Positions 39,454 to 49,659 of a stretch of DNA of 64,000 bases are shown here, in pieces. This DNA is from Nitrospirota bacterium (lineage in GTDB: Bacteria > Nitrospirota > UBA9217): assembly GCA_963740085.1 (NCBI GenBank), contig CAVUCU010000004.1, forward strand, positions 641,996-705,995, in the 5' to 3' direction. Each line of letters begins with the position of its first letter. The stretch's first letter is position 1. Position numbers and translations under genes: made by a program. The notes below the pieces were generated by a model. It was not told where the DNA came from, did not search any database, and was given only the letters and a program-made list of their open reading frames with translations.

Positions 39454-40530
39454 TTATTTTTTTCGAAAATGCCCCTCTCGCATTTTCAACAAAACCAGAA
39501 ACTTCTTATAATTTGAGTACGTATATAAATTGGCATTTCTTGAGTAGATTACGGGTTCTCCAAGAACCATATCAATTTTTGTGATTTTGGCCAGAACGAT
39601 AAATTGATTGGGGTTTTTAAATTCTTGATCATATTTTAAAAAGTATACATTTGATTTATCCATGCCCTGAAGGTTAAGCCCTACAAGTTCCTCTTTAGTT
39701 GAAAGGATAGTAATATTTTTCCCGGTTTTAAATTTTATATAGTCGCTCCAGTAAGGAGCGAAAGTTACCGCTATATTTATATGGCCATATAATGATGGGG
39801 CATAAATTACACTATTTTCGGGAATAGAGATAAATTCGCCCGTTTTAAGCAGCTGGTCAATCGTTCTCCACTTGAGATGGGACTGTGTCTGGCTAAGGGT
39901 AACGTGATAATTTGAGTAGTCGACGATGAAACTCGTAATGGCTATAATAAGGCCTACAGATACAGCATACAACAATAATAACAACTTATGGGATGAGAAT
40001 AACTGTTTCACATAAATTATCAATATTGTGAAAAACAAAACTGTTCCAAAATATGAAAAGAAGGTAACCGTATGAGCTAATGAACCAGCAGACACAACCC
40101 AGTACTGATATTTTGTTGTTAACGCTATAAGAAAGACGGGTGCAATGAAGAGTGTTATGGACAATAATGCGGTTAACCAATAGGTTCTCTTGCTGAAGTT
40201 GGTGGATTTATGTTGAATGAGGTGATAAACTAAATATGAACTGATCAATGCCTTGGTAATCCACTCTACCCTGGCATTCTTAACAATATGAATAATGCTG
40301 GAACGATGGCCCTCAAAAGCGGCAGAGTAATCATTAAACATCGGGGTAAAATGACTATATATATAAGTTGGCAGAGAACTAACGCTATATTGGTACATAA
40401 CTTTGGCAAAAGAGATGAAAGAAAAGTGGGAAATAATATTTCCCTCATAACGAGACGGATAAAAATGTCTAAATGTAAAATAGATGGCTGCATATATGAA
40501 TAACGCTGCTGCATGAGGGATAATTCTCAA
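39454..40530 (-). CDS. polytopic membrane protein (C-terminal part of a putative GT-C/Wzy-like glycan-modifying enzyme)
   Basis: It has many TM helices, AT-rich codon usage, and a 4-nt ATGA overlap with the upstream ORF. It might be one gene together with 40527-41132. Confidence 0.4.
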   Translation of the reverse strand: MRIIPHAAALFIYAAIYFTFRHFYPSRYEGNIISHFSFISFAKVMYQYSVSSLPTYIYSHFTPMFNDYSAAFEGHRSSIIHIVKNARVEWITKALISSYLVYHLIQHKSTNFSKRTYWLTALLSITLFIAPVFLIALTTKYQYWVVSAGSLAHTVTFFSYFGTVLFFTILIIYVKQLFSSHKLLLLLYAVSVGLIIAITSFIVDYSNYHVTLSQTQSHLKWRTIDQLLKTGEFISIPENSVIYAPSLYGHINIAVTFAPYWSDYIKFKTGKNITILSTKEELVGLNLQGMDKSNVYFLKYDQEFKNPNQFIVLAKITKIDMVLGEPVIYSRNANLYTYSNYKKFLVLLKMREGHFRKK

Positions 40531-41132
40531 AAAAGCTTTCGAAAATGCTTCTTGAGTTTGTTGATTGGGATCACTTCTATAAAAAAAGAGACAAAGATAA
40601 AAAGAACAAAATACATCGCGAATACTTCATAAAGTAATAACGTAAGGAAAAACAAAACGGTACTAATAATCAGGCGACTTATTTTATTTGTATCAACATA
40701 TTGCTTGAAATAAATCAAGCATATCATAAAAATACAGATGCCTGCATGAAAGACAAACGGGTATGAAGTTAAAAGGTAATGGTCCCACATATTCTGTAAA
40801 CCGACTAAATAAATAATGATGAGAAGAACCGCATAATGAAGCGATCTGTAAAATGTATAAATCATGTATCCAAATAATAGAATATTTACAATTATAATGC
40901 CGATAGAAATGAATTTATAATATACAAAGTTTCTTACGAGATATGGTACTTTGGCGAATTGGTAAGCAACAGGCATGAAAAATCTGCCTTGATCTTTAGC
41001 AATATTAATTTCACCGGTAATTCCAGTATGTTTTGAACTACTTAATTCTAGCACCATGTCGTCATTCGTAGTAAAACCAACATTGATTAATGGATAAAAA
41101 GTAAAAACGATCAATATGCCAATCATTAACAT
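40527..41132 (-). CDS. polytopic membrane protein with a DD motif in the first extracytoplasmic loop (putative GT-C fold N-terminal part)
   Basis: TM1 is followed by GFTTNDDMVLEL and then multiple TM helices. GT-C enzymes (ArnT, PglB, PMT, GtrC types) carry an acidic motif in this position (established knowledge). Confidence 0.4.
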   Translation of the reverse strand: MLMIGILIVFTFYPLINVGFTTNDDMVLELSSSKHTGITGEINIAKDQGRFFMPVAYQFAKVPYLVRNFVYYKFISIGIIIVNILLFGYMIYTFYRSLHYAVLLIIIYLVGLQNMWDHYLLTSYPFVFHAGICIFMICLIYFKQYVDTNKISRLIISTVLFFLTLLLYEVFAMYFVLFIFVSFFIEVIPINKLKKHFRKLF

Positions 41133-41910
41133 GATGGCCGAGCTAACCTTTTTGTCAGAAACTAAATTTCCATCAAGAAAATCCTCTTCCCGAACGCTTA
41201 TTGATTATTGATAATATTCAGCAATCTGCTCCAATATGCCTCGATTGAGTAGTTTTTCAGGAAGAACTCCCTTACGTTGGAGTAAAATCCTTCACATCTG
41301 ACTTTATCAAGCATCGTCGTATTCAGCACATCACGAAACTACTCATAGGGATCGTACGCGCATCCCGCTTTTGAGTCCACGATATGTTGGTTCAAATCAA
41401 AAACTGATCCAAACGGTCTTTTATGCCAAAACCGACAATGCTGTTCGGGACCTTATCTCTATAATAAATGTTCCTCGATTTTTCTCGGCATTGGTCATAA
41501 AAAGATGCGTAGAGAGAGGCCATGAAAATGAAGTAGTCGTCGTAGTCGTCTTAATAGCCCGATATATATTCAAGGAAGTGACTGGCGCATAAGGCCCTTC
41601 AAATTTCATCCACTCCTCACTAAGGCCGAGCGCAGTTTTCTTTTTTGGTATGCTGCGAAAACCGCGCTCACAACGGCTTCGGATTGTTGAAAGATCCCTT
41701 GCGTCTTCGGCAGCTATAACAGCTCAAGAAACAGGCTGAGGATGTATCCGATGACGGAAACACGATATGATTTCGTTATGACAAATCTCATCAGAAGGTC
41801 TTTTATGCGTGCATTATTCCCCTCCTCCTCTTTTGAATATTACAAGTTTGAGAGGATTTCAGGCTTTGATAACTGTCCACTCCTTGATTTATCTAAAAGG
41901 AGTTGGAATC

Positions 41911-43986
41911 CTAAAGCATCCGGTTCTCTTCCCATGATGGTCCGATAAGCATTGTGCATGATTTTTTTGTGATAATGTCGATGATTTGGCGAGCGCTATC
42001 CGCCCGATTCAGCCTCGGCATGTCATCGGACTTCGGATGCCTGCTCAATCCACAAAGACTATTGAGTTTTTTTACGTCCGCAAGGTCAGCGGCTTCCGTC
42101 CCGTTGAAGAAGTATGCAGACCGGCCCGCCACCTCGCGGAACACTGGAATATCGCGGCATGATCGGCAACTTGTGTTTGGCGGCCTCGATGAGCGGCAGG
42201 CCAAAACCTTCTCCTTCACTAGCAGCGATCAAGCAGGTGCTGGACAGCGTAAACTTTCTCCATATATTCATCGCTAGTGCTTTCCAGCCAGAATAATCGT
42301 TTGCCCAATTCGTGATGGTTGCGCGAGGTATCTGCCAGCGACCCCATCTTCCAACCCTGCTTGCCGACGACAACCAGATTCGCCTCAAAGCCCTCTGTCC
42401 ATAACTGTTCGAATGCGGCGATTGTTTGGATATGCCCTTTACGTGGTTCAAGCGTACCAACCATCAAGAAAATCGGACGTTTAGCTAGGAGACTAACACT
42501 GCCCCGGCATTTTCTGGCATGCCTCTCAATGGGCAGGATCGATGCAAATGTCTGCTCCCAAATGGTGCCAGTCAATCTTGAATGGCCGCTAACGGGCTGG
42601 CAGTCCTGTTTGTCTTTAGCCAGTCTGCAAGCTCACCAGCTACTGCTTTGGAGATGCAAATGGCACCATCGCTTTCGGCAACGGCCTTCAGCCAAGCCTG
42701 ATGCTGCTTTGTCGCCTCCTTAGTAAAAGCCTCGGGTAGGTTAATCGGCAACAGGTCATACACCACGAATTGAACCTGCACACCACGTTTGCGCAACAGC
42801 TGGAAAAAGGCTTGCTGCGCCGGCACGACTTCTGGCTGTAAGTCCAGCCCGAGAAACACACTCCAGCCCGAAACTCGATGGTGTCGTCTGATAGGGCCAA
42901 TCCCGGACAGTTGAGGAAGCTTAAAGTGAACTGCCGTGCATAGCGGTAGCCTTCGATCAGTTGTGGCATATACGGGCTCAACTTTGAAGCCTTCCAGGCG
43001 AATGGATGAGCAGTTCCTGCAGGATGCTGCGCACCACGCGCTGAATTCCAGTTTTCGAGTCACGCTGGACCAGTTTTCGAAATGTCTACCAATAACTGAC
43101 GGGGGGCGAGCAGTGGCGGGATGGAAAGAAATCGCTTCAGCAATAGGCACCCAAGCTTGCGAGTCTGACGGCGGTTCAACACAGGCCAGCGCACGTATCA
43201 AGGCAGTCACGTTGGTGTGTGCTGCGCGGCACATCGTCTCGATTGCCTTCTCATACTGGTCAGCACAGTCTCGCGGATCATGGCGAGTAAGAATGATTTC
43301 CCGTGCTTTAATACCTAGTTGTTGTCGACAAGCTGGTTCTCGCCACAGTGTTTCTAATGCGTTGACCAACTCATTATCACAAAACTCATCCGGAAGTTTC
43401 CAAACACCATCTTCCGCCAAGTCCGCCATGCTGCCATTGGCATTGACGATGGTCGGAATACCGTAATTCATACAATCGAGCACTGAGGCCGAAGTTTCTC
43501 CACGGGAAAGTGTGCGCAGTTGCACAGCCACATCAGCCGCCGCGAGGTAGTGTCGGAAGGTGGTGATATCAGTCCAACCTGTGATGCGAATACGCTTACT
43601 CAAGCCGCTTTGGCGTATCGTGTCGAGCATCGCAGCGCCATATTCACTGCTATGATTTTCACCGACGAATACTAATACGCAATTGCCGTTTTTTGCTAAA
43701 TCCGAAGCTAGCCACGCATTAAAGCAGGCGTTGGTTCAGTTTAGTGAGGTCCGAGCACTCCAAAACTACACACTGCAAAATCATCATTCTCCAATTTCAC
43801 GGCAGGCGGCGTAGCTCCTCCGGCACGGATCGATATCAAAGGCTGGGGACGCGTAGCAGTGGAATGAGCGGCCCAATCGGTCAGCAGCGCCTTTTTGTTA
43901 ATCCAATGGGTTTGCAAAGCCGCCGCGAACTTCTCGGAATGCACAATCACACCGTGCGCATTTTTTAAGGCATCTCTAGGTTGCAT
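41911..43986 (-). pseudogene. decayed glycosyltransferase family 4 gene remnants, with at least three frame changes
   Basis: GT4 fragments lie in different frames: RITGWTDITTFRHYLAAADVAVQ...CMNYGIPTIVNANGSMADL, then RPIFLMVGTLEPRKG..LVVVGKQGW..KRLFWLESTSDEYMEKVYA, then STCLIAASEGEGFGLPLIEAAKHKLPI, then RDIPVFREVAGRSAYFFN, plus GVIVHSEKFAAAL at 43741-43986. Confidence 0.6.
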
Positions 43987-44120
43987 GGATAGCGCCAGGG
44001 CACTTCAGCAAAGTAACTGATGCATCAAATAAATGCTGCAGCATGGCCGCATAGCCATGGTTTTGATAGAGTGCATTTAATCCAAGAATCAGATCCTTGG
44101 CCACTAAAATGCATGTGGCC

Positions 44121-45698
44121 CTACGACACCAGATAGAAAAAAGTCATGCAGCACGATCGATACCCGGTACCTTTCTCCAGTAAATCAAACATGTGCTGAT
44201 GTAAGTAGTTGTTGCCAAAATGATAGAGCACCCGGTCGTAACGGTCTGCGTGAGATCTGAGCCATGCCGCGCTACGTATTGTGCAGTTAGCCTTGATCCA
44301 CGAGTCGGATACGATATCCTGCGCCACAATCAGGTCGATATCATAATGACGTGAAAGCTCGGGCAGCAGCTCTGCGCTGTAATCACTGATCCCGCTATGC
44401 ACGGGTGGCAAAGGAGAGACATACGCCATCTTGGGTCGACGGGCGGGCCTGTTATCGGTCAATGGTTGGTGGGCCTTCTTAACATACAACGCCTCAACAG
44501 CAGCAATTGCCCGTTGCGCGCTGGTATCCCATGAAAACCGCTTGGCTTGTTCAAGACCATGTTGCTCCAGATCTGCCCGGAAGGCATCGTCAGTCAACAC
44601 CTGCGCGAGTTTTTCAGTAATGGACGTATCGTTCATGGGGTCGAAGAGGGCGTCATCCCGGCCTATCACTTCCGGCACACTGGAAGTGTTGGCGCCAATC
44701 ACTGCCCGACCACAGGTCATCGCTTCCAGCGCTGGCAAGCCGAAGCCTTCATGCCATGAGGGGAACACGAACGCTTTGCACAGGCCGTATAGCGTCAGTA
44801 GATCTTCTTCAGGCACAAACCCGGTCAGAACCAGTTCCTCAGCCTTCAGCCCCTGCTCCTTGGCTAGCGTTTCCAGTGCACCACGGCTGTCAGGCGTCAG
44901 ATTAGCGCTGACAATTACCAATTGGTGGCTTGTTTGTAACGGTTTGGGCAGTTTAGCGTATGCGCGTATAAGACCTTCAACGTTCTTACGGTGGTCAATG
45001 CCGCCTGTATTCATTACAAATTGCCGATGTAAACCGTAACGCTGGCGGACCTCTTGCTCTCGCTCACAGTCGATATGCTGTGGCTGAAATTGCGGGTCAG
45101 CCGCCGAGGAAATATTGACACATGCTACGGAGGGAAAACCGAGGTAACGGATCCCCTCTCGCCGAGACGATTCGGAAATTGCAAGCAGAAGGTCGGCCCG
45201 GCGCAGATGATCGAGTTTGTTCTCGTACCAGGCCTCCACCACTGGATTTTCCAAGTAGGGATTGCGCTGGATCAGTGGAATCAGGTCATACAGGATAACC
45301 GCTGTTGGCACGGTGCGGCTCAGGGTGCCGATGCTGGTGACCGCATTATCGCGTGCCCCTTCGAACAGGCTACTGACGAGAACAATATCCGGCTTGAAGC
45401 TGCCCAAAAAAGCCTCGCGAACCAACTCGGCAGTGCATCGGCGCCAATCGTTTTCCTTGCTTACATGACACACCGGTTCCGGCGACTTCCAGACACCGAT
45501 ATTTTTTTGCGGCAGCAAGCCATCAAAAGCGGCACGTATCGTTTCAATGGTGTCTGGAAACAGCTCATTGAGAGCGAGAAACACCGTGTGCATACCACGA
45601 TTACGAACGATGGCCTGAGCTAAGGATAGCGTATAACGTCCAATGCCATGTTGCTGATTACTGCCCTGCGCTCCTTGCATATCAATCACAATGCGCAT
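44121..45698 (-). CDS. glycosyltransferase (WbdA/WbpX-like mannosyl/rhamnosyltransferase, GT4-like C-terminal domain)
   Basis: MRIVIDMQGAQGSNQQHGIGRYTLSLAQAI N-terminus, and C-terminal FVFPSWHEGFGLPALEAMTCGRAVIGANTSSVPEV. Confidence 0.7.
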   Translation of the reverse strand: MRIVIDMQGAQGSNQQHGIGRYTLSLAQAIVRNRGMHTVFLALNELFPDTIETIRAAFDGLLPQKNIGVWKSPEPVCHVSKENDWRRCTAELVREAFLGSFKPDIVLVSSLFEGARDNAVTSIGTLSRTVPTAVILYDLIPLIQRNPYLENPVVEAWYENKLDHLRRADLLLAISESSRREGIRYLGFPSVACVNISSAADPQFQPQHIDCEREQEVRQRYGLHRQFVMNTGGIDHRKNVEGLIRAYAKLPKPLQTSHQLVIVSANLTPDSRGALETLAKEQGLKAEELVLTGFVPEEDLLTLYGLCKAFVFPSWHEGFGLPALEAMTCGRAVIGANTSSVPEVIGRDDALFDPMNDTSITEKLAQVLTDDAFRADLEQHGLEQAKRFSWDTSAQRAIAAVEALYVKKAHQPLTDNRPARRPKMAYVSPLPPVHSGISDYSAELLPELSRHYDIDLIVAQDIVSDSWIKANCTIRSAAWLRSHADRYDRVLYHFGNNYLHQHMFDLLEKGTGYRSCCMTFFYLVS

Positions 45699-46483
45699 CA
45701 GTTTTTCCCCGCTTTGATGGCTTTTTGCAAGTCAGCATAGATGCGGGTGGCGCGGGGAGAAAGGTTCTTTACTAACGGCGCGGCATCATCACTGTCCGCA
45801 TATTTAATTGCTGCGTCGTCACTGTCCGTATATTTCATTGAAGCACCTATGCCCACACCAATGATCAGCCCCGATCTCGCAGCGAACTCGCGCAGTCGTT
45901 GCACGAGTCGAGGCTGTTTGGTCAACATGGTCTTCACATGCGCTTTCAGGCGATAGTTGGAAAGGGTCTTTCGCATGACCCACAGCACCAGCGGCTTGAC
46001 CATTTGCTTTATCAGGCGTGGCATCCAGAGTACTATACGCTTGGTTATCAATACAATAAATTTGGCTATCCTCACAGCCTGACGAAGCGGCCAGGTGATT
46101 AGCCAGGACTTGCTTGTATAAACGTCCTGAAGCTCACAGTTGAGACCTTCGGCCACTTGATTAAGTTCATCAATTTTCGCTTTGGCCGCATCCCATTCAT
46201 TCTGTAGCCATTGGCTATTCGCTTGCAGACGGGTATTATGCTCGTTAACTCCATTCAGTTCGGCAGCAAGCTTCTCCGCTTTTTGATTGGCCGCATCCCA
46301 TTCATTCTGTAGCCATTGGTTATGCGCTTGCAGACTGGAATTATGCTCGTTAACTCCATTCAGTTCGGCAGCAAGCTTCTCCGCTTTTTGATTGGCCGCA
46401 TCCCATTCATTCTGTAGCCATTGCACGGAGGCTTCGGCTTGCGTGATCAGTTCTGTCTCTCTTGCCTGGTGTGACGCTATCAC
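45698..46483 (-). CDS. coiled-coil repeat protein; candidate WbdD-like chain-length ruler/terminator module
   Basis: There are 2.5 perfect copies of a 35-aa heptad-rich unit, QWLQNEWDAANQKAEKLAAELNGVNEHNSSLQAHN. The gene lies between FkbM methyltransferase fragments and a GT4 in an ABC-dependent O-polysaccharide locus. Confidence 0.5.
   Translation of the reverse strand: MIASHQARETELITQAEASVQWLQNEWDAANQKAEKLAAELNGVNEHNSSLQAHNQWLQNEWDAANQKAEKLAAELNGVNEHNTRLQANSQWLQNEWDAAKAKIDELNQVAEGLNCELQDVYTSKSWLITWPLRQAVRIAKFIVLITKRIVLWMPRLIKQMVKPLVLWVMRKTLSNYRLKAHVKTMLTKQPRLVQRLREFAARSGLIIGVGIGASMKYTDSDDAAIKYADSDDAAPLVKNLSPRATRIYADLQKAIKAGKN
46150..46445. repeat. tandem 105-nt direct repeat (about 2.5 copies) inside the coiled-coil gene
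   Basis: The unit starting ggccgcatcccattcattctgtagccattgg recurs at 46184, 46289 and 46394 with near-perfect identity. Confidence 0.8.
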
Positions 46484-46510
46484 CCCTTACAAAAATAGGA
46501 ACTCGATCCG

Positions 46511-47140
46511 TCACATTACATCGTCAAACACATTTGGCGGTGAAGAAAATGCCTCAGCAAGCTCGGCATGTTCCTTTGCCACATAAAAACGATTGAGCCC
46601 GTCAAAGTAAACAAACTGATATTTCGCTGCAGTGAAAATAGGGTCCCAGCCTGCGTAGTCTGTCTCGGGCGAGCCGGGAATGGTCGCCTCAACCACCATT
46701 ACCCAGGGACGCAGGGTTTGGCTGTCCCAGCCTTTCAGCACCTTTTCTTCAAATCCTTCCACATCAATTTTGAGCCAATGAACTTCTTTTCCCGACAGCG
46801 ACCGCAATGCTGATTTCAAAGTCAAAACTGGCACCTGGATCCTTGGCGATCAAAACCTCGCTCCGTTTGATGGCGTTCTGCGAACGCATCCTCGACGGTA
46901 CTGAGGCCGGTGCCTGGAATGACATTGAACTCCAGCGTGCCTTCGGTATCAGCCAACGCAACTTGCAGCACCGTTCGTCCGGTCTGTCCTGGCGCAGCAG
47001 TTCGGCATATTCAGGAACAGGCTCAATGTGAATACCCCGCCAGCCGTGCTCATAAAAGGCTTGCTCACAGAATCCACCACCGGGTGCTGCGCGCCAACGT
47101 CGACATAAACTCCGATTTCACATGCTTGAGCGCGCGCCAA
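46511..47140 (-). pseudogene. FkbM-family methyltransferase broken into fragments
   Basis: The C-terminal fragment ORF 46511-46834 (HWLKIDVEGFEEKVLKGW) and the N-terminal-like fragment 46949-47140 (IGVYVDVGAQHP) are in a different frame. Confidence 0.45.
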
Positions 47141-47189
47141 AGCATCACGTCTTCAAAATTTTGGGCGTAAGAGACAAAACTCATTGTGT

Positions 47190-48430
47190 ACCTTCCTGAC
47201 TCTGGCGAGAAATGACAAATTGGCCATCAAGCCAGTTACTGCCAATAAAAATGTCGCGGTTTCCATTGATCACATCAAACACCAGCATGTTATCTATCCA
47301 TTCAAAGTTATCGATCAGATGAGTATCTGTACTCACAAGAGCTGGAGAAACCGAGTACGAACCCGGTCCCAGGGTGCAGGTAAATGCAACTTGAAGACAA
47401 CGGTTTCGCCTGTTTTAACGCCTCTTGTATTTGGTGCGTGTGCCAGGTGTTGGTACCCCACACCACATGGCCTTGCTTGTCACGGATCATGTAAGCCGAG
47501 CACGAGCCGAGGTATTCGGCATGAATCGTGAGCTTCGAGCCGCAATTCCACCGCCTGGCCGATTTGCGCGACGGCTAACTCGGTGCCTGTAGCAGCATCT
47601 AATAGTTGAAGTGATTTACGCGCGCCTCGCCCGTTCCGCTCCTGGTAAGCAACCAGCCATCTTTCTTGCGGCGCTGCTCAATGCTAAGTTTTGCGTTTTC
47701 TTTTTCTGCAATGAGGGCATTGTAGTAGTCCACAACTTCGTCGGGCTGTCCGTCTTTAAGCACGCCTCCCTTATCCAACAAGATGACACTGTCGCACAGG
47801 GTGCGCACGACATCCAGACATGGGTAACCATCATGATAGAAATGCCTTCGACTTTAAACTGCCTGATACGATCAAAGCTTTTATGCTGAAAATAGCTGTC
47901 ACCAACACTCAAAACCTCATCAACGATGAGTACATCTGGCGTCACTGCCGTCGCCAGGGCGAAGGCCAAGCGGGCATTCATACCGCTCGAGTAAACCCGC
48001 AGGGGTTGATCGAAAAACTCTCCAATCTCGGCAAAATTCTCAATGTCAGGCATCAAGATCGTCAACTCGGAAGTGCTGAGTCCCATCAAACCACCAGAAG
48101 ATAAACATTTTGCCGAGCAGTAAAGTCTGGATTGAATCCTAGTCCAAGTTCAAGAATTGCGCTGATACGTCCATTGATTTTTACGCTTCCAGTACTAGGG
48201 CGAACGGTACCGGTGATCAATTTAAGCAAGGTGCTCTTCCCTGCGCCATTCTGGCCGATAATCGCCAATGCTTCGCCTCGGCGCAGAGTAAAATTCACAT
48301 TTTTCAGTGCCCAATATTCATGCACATGCTGCGACGGAAATCCAAACCATTGTGAAAACCGTGTAAAATTGTTGCGATACGTGGTATAGCATTTCCCCAC
48401 CCCTGAGACATTCAGAACTGTATCACTCAT
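47190..48430 (-). pseudogene. wzt: O-antigen ABC transporter ATP-binding protein Wzt with at least two frameshifts and a degraded C-terminal domain
   Basis: Walker A GQNGAGKST (48086-48430), then ABC signature YSSGMNARLAFALA and Walker B LIVDEV (47616-48089, a different frame), then RTLCDSVILLDKGGVLKDGQPDEV (47599-47808, a third frame). Remnants such as GHVVWGTNTWHT lie further downstream. Confidence 0.7.
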
Positions 48431-49221
48431 AGTTCATCCACTAAATCAGCACTGGCCCGACGAAAGACCAAAAATGAGATCATGAACAAAGTTGCTGATA
48501 CCAGGATTGGGATCAGCAAAGTTCCCCATTGCGGGAAAGTGTTATAGAGCATGGCATCCTGATAAAGTTTGACCAGAGGCGCCATCGGATTAAATACTGC
48601 AAGCCAACTCAGACTCTTCGACAGGGTGCCTGATGTGTAAACGACTGGAGTAAGCCAAAACCATATTTGCATGACAACGGTGAAAACTTGTCCGACATCG
48701 CGCACAAATACGTTGAAGACGCCCAGCAAGACACCGAGGCCGAATGCAAACGCGGTGACCACAAGCATCCCAATCGGTAAAACCACCCAGGCAACACCGG
48801 GAAAATGGCCAAAAAATAAAAAGACTACTGCTGTAGCAAGAAGCAATAATACGTGATTCAACAGCGCGCTGCCTCCCACAATTACCGGCAGACAAAGGCG
48901 GGGGAAAGAGATTTTTTTAAGCACACCAGCGTACTCGATAAAGATAGTCGTGCAACGGGTTATGATCTCGGCAAAAAATCCCCACGCCGCCATGCCAGCC
49001 ATCAGGTAGATGGCATAGCCGGCTTTATTTGTCACTCCTGGTAGTTTTGACCCCAAAACCTCTGATAATACCAGCGCATAGATGGCAGCTTGCATCAATG
49101 GATGCAGGATAAACCAGAGCGCCCCAAGGCTGGAGCGCGCGAATCGACGCTTTAATTCCCCTTGTATTGATGAAATAATAAAATGCCGGAATTTCCAAAG
49201 GGCCTGAATAATTTGTTTCAA
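48427..49221 (-). CDS. wzm: O-antigen ABC transporter permease
   Basis: ABC-2 permease of 264 aa with about six TM helices. RRFARSSLGALWFILHPLMQAAIYALV is typical of Wzm/KpsM. Its ATGA overlaps wzt. Confidence 0.8.
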   Translation of the reverse strand: MKQIIQALWKFRHFIISSIQGELKRRFARSSLGALWFILHPLMQAAIYALVLSEVLGSKLPGVTNKAGYAIYLMAGMAAWGFFAEIITRCTTIFIEYAGVLKKISFPRLCLPVIVGGSALLNHVLLLLATAVVFLFFGHFPGVAWVVLPIGMLVVTAFAFGLGVLLGVFNVFVRDVGQVFTVVMQIWFWLTPVVYTSGTLSKSLSWLAVFNPMAPLVKLYQDAMLYNTFPQWGTLLIPILVSATLFMISFLVFRRASADLVDEL

Positions 49222-49479
49222 TTATATTCTCCTCATTGCAGTCGGACTCGGCAAAAGCTTCATCTTTGAAAGAATACCCGCAATCAGGTAGATGCCGTAG
49301 CTGTAAGTATTTGATGACGCACCCTGCAGACGCGCTCCCATGACCTGCGAAAAAATTATGGTGTACACAAAGATATTCACCAGGGGCCAGATAAAGGTCC
49401 AGAAGACCCCAAGGACGGAGCCTGAGTACCGTTCTGTAAAATCTCGTTTTGTCAGTTCTATTAATAAGCTTATATTCAA
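49222..49479 (-). pseudogene. N-terminal fragment of a second, divergent Wzm-type permease
   Basis: ELTKRDFTERYSGSVLGVFWTFIWPLVNIFVYTIIF is a Wzm N-terminus, but only about 85 aa before a stop. It is directly adjacent to the intact wzm. Confidence 0.45.
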
Positions 49480-49659
49480 GTGATTGTCTCAAGAAGTCCG
49501 CTGCAGTTTCGAAGCACCGTTATAGTACTATAGCACCTCTAACTTGTCAATGATACACACATTTCGAAAGGTCAAACAGTGAAAATCTCAATAGCCGCAT
49601 AGCACTTAAGTAATATTTTTGCTGACCCCTTTCTCTCAATTTCTTTAACAGAAAAGTGC

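Follow-up and report, generated by a model that had tools for sequence, protein, structure and literature searches.

A 64,000-nucleotide stretch of a Nitrospirota genome (assembly GCA_963740085.1, contig CAVUCU010000004.1; hereafter the window) carries, at 41855-49478, a block of genes that forms a complete-type O-antigen cassette, of the well-known and unexceptional kind in which O-polysaccharide export depends on an ATP-binding cassette (ABC) transporter. Several of its genes are broken by small insertions and deletions (indels), and an earlier note, made from the letters of the window alone, had read the block as a pathway that is being lost. Comparison with related sequences points elsewhere: the approximately 46 frame-breaking indels that are private to the window are best explained as errors of the assembly consensus, a reading which we consider probable, and not as loss of the pathway.

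Gene content of the cassette

The intact form of the cassette is found in L085, L086 and L087, three short-read assemblies (with a megahit-style name, from JGI and from Logan, respectively) of one related Nitrospirota lineage, whose MiaB is about 87% identical to that of the window. It encodes a Wzm of 222 amino acids (aa), a Wzt of 417 aa, a methyltransferase-coiled coil protein of 509 aa and a polymerase of 1243 aa, the last followed by a 756-aa membrane protein. Throughout the block the window genes are read on the minus strand, in the order wzm relic, wzm, wzt with a sugar-binding domain, FkbM-coiled coil gene and polymerase gene with three glycosyltransferase family 4 (GT4) domains. Domains were assigned by Pfam and NCBIfam profile searches. 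The features are as follows.

41855-49478: exchangeable cassette, covered by one 7.6-kb blastn alignment (91.4% identity) to L085 9632-17267
49222-49479, minus strand: relic wzm N-terminal stub of about 70-85 codons, at the 5′ edge of the cassette
48427-49221, minus strand: wzm, ABC-2 permease of 264 aa, intact; matches PF01061 (1.4e-20) over residues 18-224
47184-48430, minus strand: wzt, ATPase with a C-terminal Wzt_C carbohydrate-binding domain; 8 window-private single-base indels
45698-47184, minus strand: chain terminator, with an FkbM methyltransferase at ~46490-47184 and a coiled coil plus hydrophobic/amphipathic C-terminal tail at 45698-46483
41947-45698, minus strand: polymerase gene, encoding three GT4 domains (1243 aa in L085), with ~33 indels private to the window beyond codon ~510
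43723-44171, minus strand: insertion-only burst in the polymerase gene, with 28 bases added in 19 events and no deletion
41960-43167, minus strand: third GT4 domain of the polymerase; 14 mixed indels and one nonsense substitution, CAG>TAG at 42591

Matches to Pfam, NCBIfam and PDB bear out the gene content that had been proposed (wzm, wzt, a WbdD-like terminator and WbdA/WbpX-like GT4 enzymes), and the described changes of frame are also present. In wzt, the fragment with the Walker A motif matches PF00005, and the pieces of the ABC ATPase lie in different frames (47599-48430). The L085 ortholog, which contains both PF00005 (ABC_tran) and PF14524 (Wzt_C), aligns to the window by tblastn in frames -1/-3/-1, and the frame is continuous only after removal of the 8 indels. 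The FkbM methyltransferase is in fragments, one of which (46511-46834) matches PF05050, as does the 509-aa protein of L085. GT4 pieces at 41911-43986 were recovered in several frames by Pfam and tblastn searches; the L085 polymerase has three PF00534/PF13692 modules, and the window fragments match PF00534.

Three genes of the block had been taken to be intact, which is correct for wzm, whereas the GT4 open reading frame (ORF) at 44121-45698 and the coiled-coil ORF at 45698-46483 are fragments of longer genes. The former, of 525 aa, corresponds to the first ~510 codons of the 1243-codon polymerase gene: codons 1-508 are free of indels, the frame is lost at 44171, and further GT4 fragments extend down to 41911. 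The latter is the C-terminal half of the terminator gene, which encodes a single 509-aa protein in L085. The window aligns to this protein across 47184-45701 (tblastn), its own copy being split by 5-6 small deletions, and the apparent stop between methyltransferase and coiled coil (46511-46513) is the product of a TT>T deletion.

Indels, substitutions and selection

Indels were called from a multiple alignment of six sequences, namely the window, L085, L084, L087, L083 and L001, and the ratio of nonsynonymous to synonymous substitution rates (dN/dS) was calculated between the window and L085 after the indels had been removed by alignment. Relative to L085 there are 53 indel events; at nearly all of these the other relatives have the L085 state, which leaves the ~46 window-private events. 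These comprise 1-4 bases each and are clustered by type, with 13 single-base deletions and 2 insertions at 48098-46489, 14 events of mixed type at 43167-41968 and insertions only in the burst at 43723-44171, where all 19 are absent from both L085 and L001. No private indel was found in wzm, or in 2.3 kb of sequence at 44172-46483.

Over most of its length the frame-corrected coding sequence is under purifying selection, with low dN/dS values and with private substitutions that fall mainly on third codon positions. The ratio is 0.125 for wzm and 0.148 for wzt, which has no stops after correction and whose private substitutions are distributed over the three codon positions as 21, 8 and 46. The corrected burst (polymerase codons 509-650) is also free of stops and has a dN/dS of 0.175; its differences from L085 number 4, 5 and 21 by codon position, and the window-private ones among the substitutions 2, 2 and 8. 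For polymerase codons 651-835 the value is 0.17. Of the marks of the decay that had been proposed, disrupted frames are present, but relaxed selection is not seen in wzm, wzt and polymerase codons 509-835 (dN/dS 0.125-0.18).

In bacterial mutation spectra, substitutions outnumber indels roughly ten to one, and deletions predominate among the indels. Had 46 indels accumulated by drift, neutral substitutions would be expected to number several hundred, and several codons should have turned into stops. In the burst, private indels number 19, 0 and 0 in the window, L085 and L001, respectively, against 12, 17 and 9 private substitutions, and every one of the 19 is an insertion. The relic wzm stub provides a contrast within the same cassette: 16-20% of its positions carry window-private substitutions, about 40-50 of them per 2-3 indels, i.e. 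~1 indel per 17 substitutions. Neither the ratio nor the bias of natural decay is therefore found in the burst.

Contigs of the same ENA series with Flye-style names contain similar lesions at other places. The same-species sister genome is a 2.57-Mb ENA contig (contig_1415) that was compared in two parts, L082 and L088. In L082, which has a Flye-style name, single extra bases truncate MiaB (373 vs 436 aa) and FabG (152 vs 243 aa), both of which are intact in the window, and L088 has a split wzm and wzt. L001, from another assembly of the same ENA series, has an open polymerase gene and ~10 extra bases in rfbF/rfbG, which are intact in the window; L083 has 8 private indels in wzt. Such indels are absent from all three short-read copies of the cassette. 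Together with the insertion-only and deletion-only runs, the intact short-read copies and the broken housekeeping genes of sister assemblies speak against a pathway being lost.

A workflow of Nanopore sequencing, Flye assembly and one round of Medaka polishing was used in a large project on metagenome-assembled genomes from soil and sediment with the same contig naming (PMC12313526). From contig naming and sizes we infer a long-read origin of the window too. Long-read metagenome assembly would then have erred across a stretch that is strain-specific and hence poorly covered or poorly polished.

Several observations weigh against consensus errors. Indels are much denser in the block (about 7 per kb) than in the rest of the window, and the 32 kb common to the window and the sister genome contain at most 12 gap positions, so that an extra assumption is needed, namely low coverage or poor polishing of the strain-specific stretch. 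The adjoining strain-specific rfb genes (30-38.7 kb) are clean. The gmd gene, encoding GDP-mannose 4,6-dehydratase and lying outside the block, is also frameshifted, which fits the loss of one pathway. Of the inserted bases, half do not lengthen a homopolymer, unlike in classic Nanopore error. The pattern of substitutions is a natural mosaic with long runs and does not specifically support polishing with mixed haplotypes. Lastly, the third GT4 domain departs from the low dN/dS of the other parts, as described below.

A mixed-haplotype consensus was considered as a specific source of the insertions and is unsupported: a few of them do resemble both alleles side by side, but the single-nucleotide differences lie in long tracts like those of a natural mosaic.

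Frame breaks also occur outside the block, in MtaB (14169-14241) and in a 753-aa membrane protein (38914-41132), the latter at T8/T7 and A7/A6 runs. The mtaB gene (13279-14554) is split into ORFs of 127 and 316 aa, four single-base differences from the sister genome fall within 14169-14241, and the gene is split in the sister as well, which means either a shared problem region or a real lesion. Near the end of the window, the ORF of a GT9 heptosyltransferase (63296-63961) matches the family profile in its C-terminal two thirds only, with an upstream stop before the window end; this may be another frame break or a cut at the window edge.

Alternative explanations of the frame breaks

The third GT4 domain (41960-43167) is the only part of the block for which real decay can be argued, and at most it may carry a genuine inactivating change. 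Most indels would then be assembly noise and this domain alone truly inactivated, which we regard as unlikely. The substitution at 42591 is the only true nonsense substitution overall, codons 836-1243 appear weakly relaxed (dN/dS 0.375 vs 0.181 in L001), and private substitutions by codon position (19, 22 and 27) differ from those in the intact lineages (19, 11 and 42; chi-square p=0.03). In L001 the domain is already a separate ORF. The signal falls to p=0.24 without the last 70 codons, which are poorly aligned; misalignment around the 14 indels inflates the apparent number of substitutions, and the lone C>T change might itself be a consensus error. If true, inactivation of this domain could lead to a different repeat unit or to absence of the polymer. 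There is likewise a minority chance that gmd, with its single frameshift, is truly inactivated.

Very recent, genuine pseudogenisation that takes in wzt, terminator, polymerase and gmd and so the ABC pathway as a whole, with a Wzx/Wzy system taking over O-antigen synthesis, seems quite unlikely. It would account for the frame breaks in four genes of one pathway plus gmd, and for the nonsense substitution as well. The Wzx/Wzy cluster (49.6-60.7 kb) is indeed intact, with the same gene lengths as in the sister strain, and the different ABC cassette of that strain is also split in wzm and wzt. The low, stop-free dN/dS of wzt and the burst (0.15-0.18) is hard to reconcile with this scenario, under which several hundred neutral substitutions would be expected. 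The same holds for 19 indels beside 12 substitutions in the burst, for runs of insertions only and of deletions only without an overall deletion bias, and for like indels in essential genes of sister assemblies.

It is very improbable that the indels are real and arose through a localised, indel-only mutational process or through very recent targeted inactivation of a strain-specific cassette, with the record of purifying selection left untouched. Programmed or phase-variable frameshifting, in which slipped-strand mispairing at repeats would toggle the pathway, can practically be dismissed: the 753-aa membrane protein is broken at homopolymer tracts of a kind that can vary phase in lipopolysaccharide (LPS) genes, but most indels of the block lie outside long homopolymers and repeats, and 46 simultaneous frameshifts cannot serve as a switch.

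If consensus errors are the cause, the main value of the case is cautionary, as frameshifts that cluster where strains vary can, in genomes assembled from long-read metagenomes, be mistaken for the decay of pseudogenes. Counting lineage-private indels against substitutions and calculating frame-corrected dN/dS against an intact relative constitutes a test that requires no reads.

Relic wzm stub

A second wzm, surviving as an N-terminal stub, had been counted among the signs of decay. The 85-codon stub at 49222-49479 does exist, but it is common to L084, L085 and L087 (83-87% aa identity) and shares 50-56% identity with the N-termini of Wzm proteins from canonical cassettes in other phyla. It stems from a wzm of another type that was replaced in situ; as an old and inherited relic, it is not part of any current loss.

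Strain variability and exchange of the cassette

The window belongs to Nitrospirota, in which the named relatives of its MiaB (14545-15855) are found; its other backbone genes are bioB/W/F/D, fabG, mtaB, manB and manC. The sister genome matches the window closely on both sides of the cassette, with 99.34% identity between L082 and window 25663-4548 and 99.16% between L088 and window 60676-49646. At 49646 the homology to L088 ends exactly, and beyond this point the sister strain carries a different ABC-type cassette (L088 11036-21020) encoding an epimerase, a 307-aa protein, Wzm, Wzt with Wzt_C, an FkbM methyltransferase, a GT2 enzyme and another methyltransferase. The two cassettes share no nucleotide similarity. 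For these reasons the block, as judged from the alignments, sits in a strain-variable O-antigen locus. No second copy of the cassette of this strain was found, the 99%-identical sister genome carrying the other one. In sample ERZ25039502 the locus is broken into neighbouring contigs (157838, 157840 and 157841) with different variants, as happens in an assembly graph when strains are heterogeneous.

The block had been described as GC-richer than its surroundings, which is true of its immediate flanks: GC content is 0.50-0.53 at 42-48 kb, compared with 0.33-0.40 at 39-42 kb and 0.43-0.46 at 49-55 kb, the window as a whole having about 48%. It does not differ from the housekeeping backbone (1-25663) in this respect (0.506 vs 0.499), and it seems GC-rich because the adjoining LPS genes are AT-rich; the argument for foreign origin from GC content fails. 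Tetranucleotide composition does set the block apart: it correlates with the backbone at 0.585, whereas other parts of the window reach 0.82-0.95, and the block is the strongest outlier.

Horizontal acquisition had also been proposed. Although GC content offers no help and the host is a member of Nitrospirota, the cassette is exchangeable and compositionally odd, its flanks are unrelated to L085 or only 65% identical (blastn), and its nearest named relatives include Gamma- and Betaproteobacteria. The polymerase is closest to proteins of Methylococcales (71-76% aa identity) and Wzm to those of Sterolibacteriaceae, Undibacterium and Desulfallas (65-70%). The gene order recurs in Proteobacteria, Firmicutes, Acidobacteriota and others; a search of the block against an E. 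coli genome gave no match. Exchange of the cassette as such, at some point also across phyla, is well supported. Uncultured Nitrospirota thus swap whole ABC-type O-antigen cassettes at a fixed site, and a wzm-wzt-terminator-3xGT4 cassette is common to several phyla, both of which are expected for O-antigen loci.

Chain terminator

The L085 terminator consists of an FkbM methyltransferase domain (residues 29-192), a coiled coil (~240-360) and a hydrophobic/amphipathic tail. Like WbdD-type proteins, it joins a capping domain to a coiled coil and to a region for membrane association at its C-terminus. Against PDB chains, including WbdD, the terminator gave no match at E<=0.01, and the Pfam search found FkbM only and no kinase. 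It is predicted to be WbdD-like in its working, yet not a member of the WbdD family. Within the coiled coil there is a tandem repeat at 46182-46423 (unit of 105 nt or 35 aa, 2.3 copies, 97% identity); three 35-aa repeats are present in the window and four in L085. If the coiled coil serves as a ruler, this difference would alter O-antigen chain length.

In L083, from the same metagenome as L001, the cassette occurs in a variant form that contains a sulfotransferase gene (3422-4171) between wzt and the FkbM methyltransferase gene, which hints at a different chemistry of the terminal cap.

Comparison with known systems

The earlier note had named the E. coli O9a and Pseudomonas loci for comparison, and the cassette follows the same ABC-dependent logic. 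As in the E. coli O9a/Klebsiella O3 polymannose system (Wzm-Wzt, WbdA, WbdD), ABC-transporter dependence is combined with a GT4 polymerase of several domains and with a Wzt that ends in a carbohydrate-binding domain; the terminator of both consists of a catalytic domain for capping, a coiled coil and a C-terminal part that associates with the membrane. The cassette differs in that the terminator is of FkbM type, without a kinase and without a sequence match to WbdD, that a single 1243-aa polymerase unites three GT4 domains, that the host belongs to Nitrospirota, and that a neighbourhood with gmd and an rmd-like gene points to D-rhamnose rather than mannose. The role of WbdD is described in PMC3482155.

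Only the transporter can be compared with Wzm-Wzt of Aquifex aeolicus (PDB 8dku, 7k2t and 6an5). The L085 Wzt aligns over its full length (residues 13-406) to 8dku (404-aa chain, E 6.6e-74), the carbohydrate-binding domain included, whereas the Wzt copy of the window has its 8 single-base indels.

The common polysaccharide antigen (CPA) loci of Pseudomonas aeruginosa and P. syringae, which direct D-rhamnan synthesis, contain gmd, rmd, wzm/wzt, GT4 enzymes of the rhamnosyltransferase type and an O-methyltransferase terminator, a combination that the window resembles; the P. syringae locus is described in PMC7820976. In contrast to these loci, gmd and the rmd-like gene of the window lie 14 kb from the polymerase gene, with a CDP-dideoxyhexose operon in between, and three GT4 modules are fused into one protein. 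Burkholderia loci encode the same polymerase (about 55% identity) with gmd directly downstream.

Candidate genes for sugar supply and proposed mechanism

Two genes outside the block may supply its sugar.

27048-28095, minus strand: gmd (GDP-mannose 4,6-dehydratase), with one frameshift; ORF 27337-28095 matches TIGR01472 at profile positions 1-250 of 342
25673-26665, minus strand: Rmd-like short-chain dehydrogenase/reductase, candidate GDP-4-keto-6-deoxymannose reductase; PF16363 (7e-42)

The remainder of gmd reads in the next frame, in agreement with the frameshift that had been noticed in this gene. The Rmd-like protein has matches to generic families only. Among the loci of relatives, gmd lies within 10 kb of the polymerase gene in 33 of 41, usually directly downstream, and an rmd-like gene (44-50% homologs, adjoining gmd) is present in 21 of the 41 cassette loci. 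Of the two products suggested earlier, D-rhamnan or mannan, a D-rhamnan-type polymer is plausible, this specificity being predicted from the gene neighbourhood.

The following steps are proposed from the protein families, with E. coli O9a, Aquifex WzmWzt and the CPA system of Pseudomonas as models. ManB and ManC (21.4-24.4 kb) would make GDP-mannose, which Gmd and the Rmd-like enzyme probably convert to GDP-D-rhamnose. The 1243-aa protein with three GT4 domains may polymerise this sugar on the undecaprenyl carrier at the inner face of the membrane. The membrane-tethered FkbM methyltransferase would then cap the chain, the coiled coil acting as a spacer or ruler, and the C-terminal carbohydrate-binding domain of Wzt would recognise the cap, so that Wzm/Wzt could export the polymer.

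Neighbouring genes

A Gtr-like trio adjoins the cassette: GtrA (PF04138, 28271-28672), a GtrB/ArnC/PgfS-like GT2 enzyme (28683-29783) and the ~753-aa membrane protein. The last is polytopic, has a GC content of 33% and is kept downstream of the polymerase gene in L001 and L085; Pfam and NCBIfam searches gave no match for it. The trio could be a periplasmic system for side-branch glycosylation of the ABC-made polymer.

Rfam and tRNA scans of the window gave no hits. A four-helix-bundle protein of the 23S rRNA intervening-sequence family is encoded inside the O-antigen locus, both in the window (26599-26994) and in L085 (104-430).

The region at 30617-38723 encodes the CDP-glucose pathway enzymes RfbF, RfbG and RfbH, then a YerE-like thiamine-diphosphate enzyme, followed by an acetylating acetaldehyde dehydrogenase, a 4-hydroxy-2-oxovalerate aldolase and two epimerase/reductases. 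Such a gene set suggests a branched-chain 3,6-dideoxyhexose (a yersiniose-like sugar) with its own supply of the two-carbon donor.

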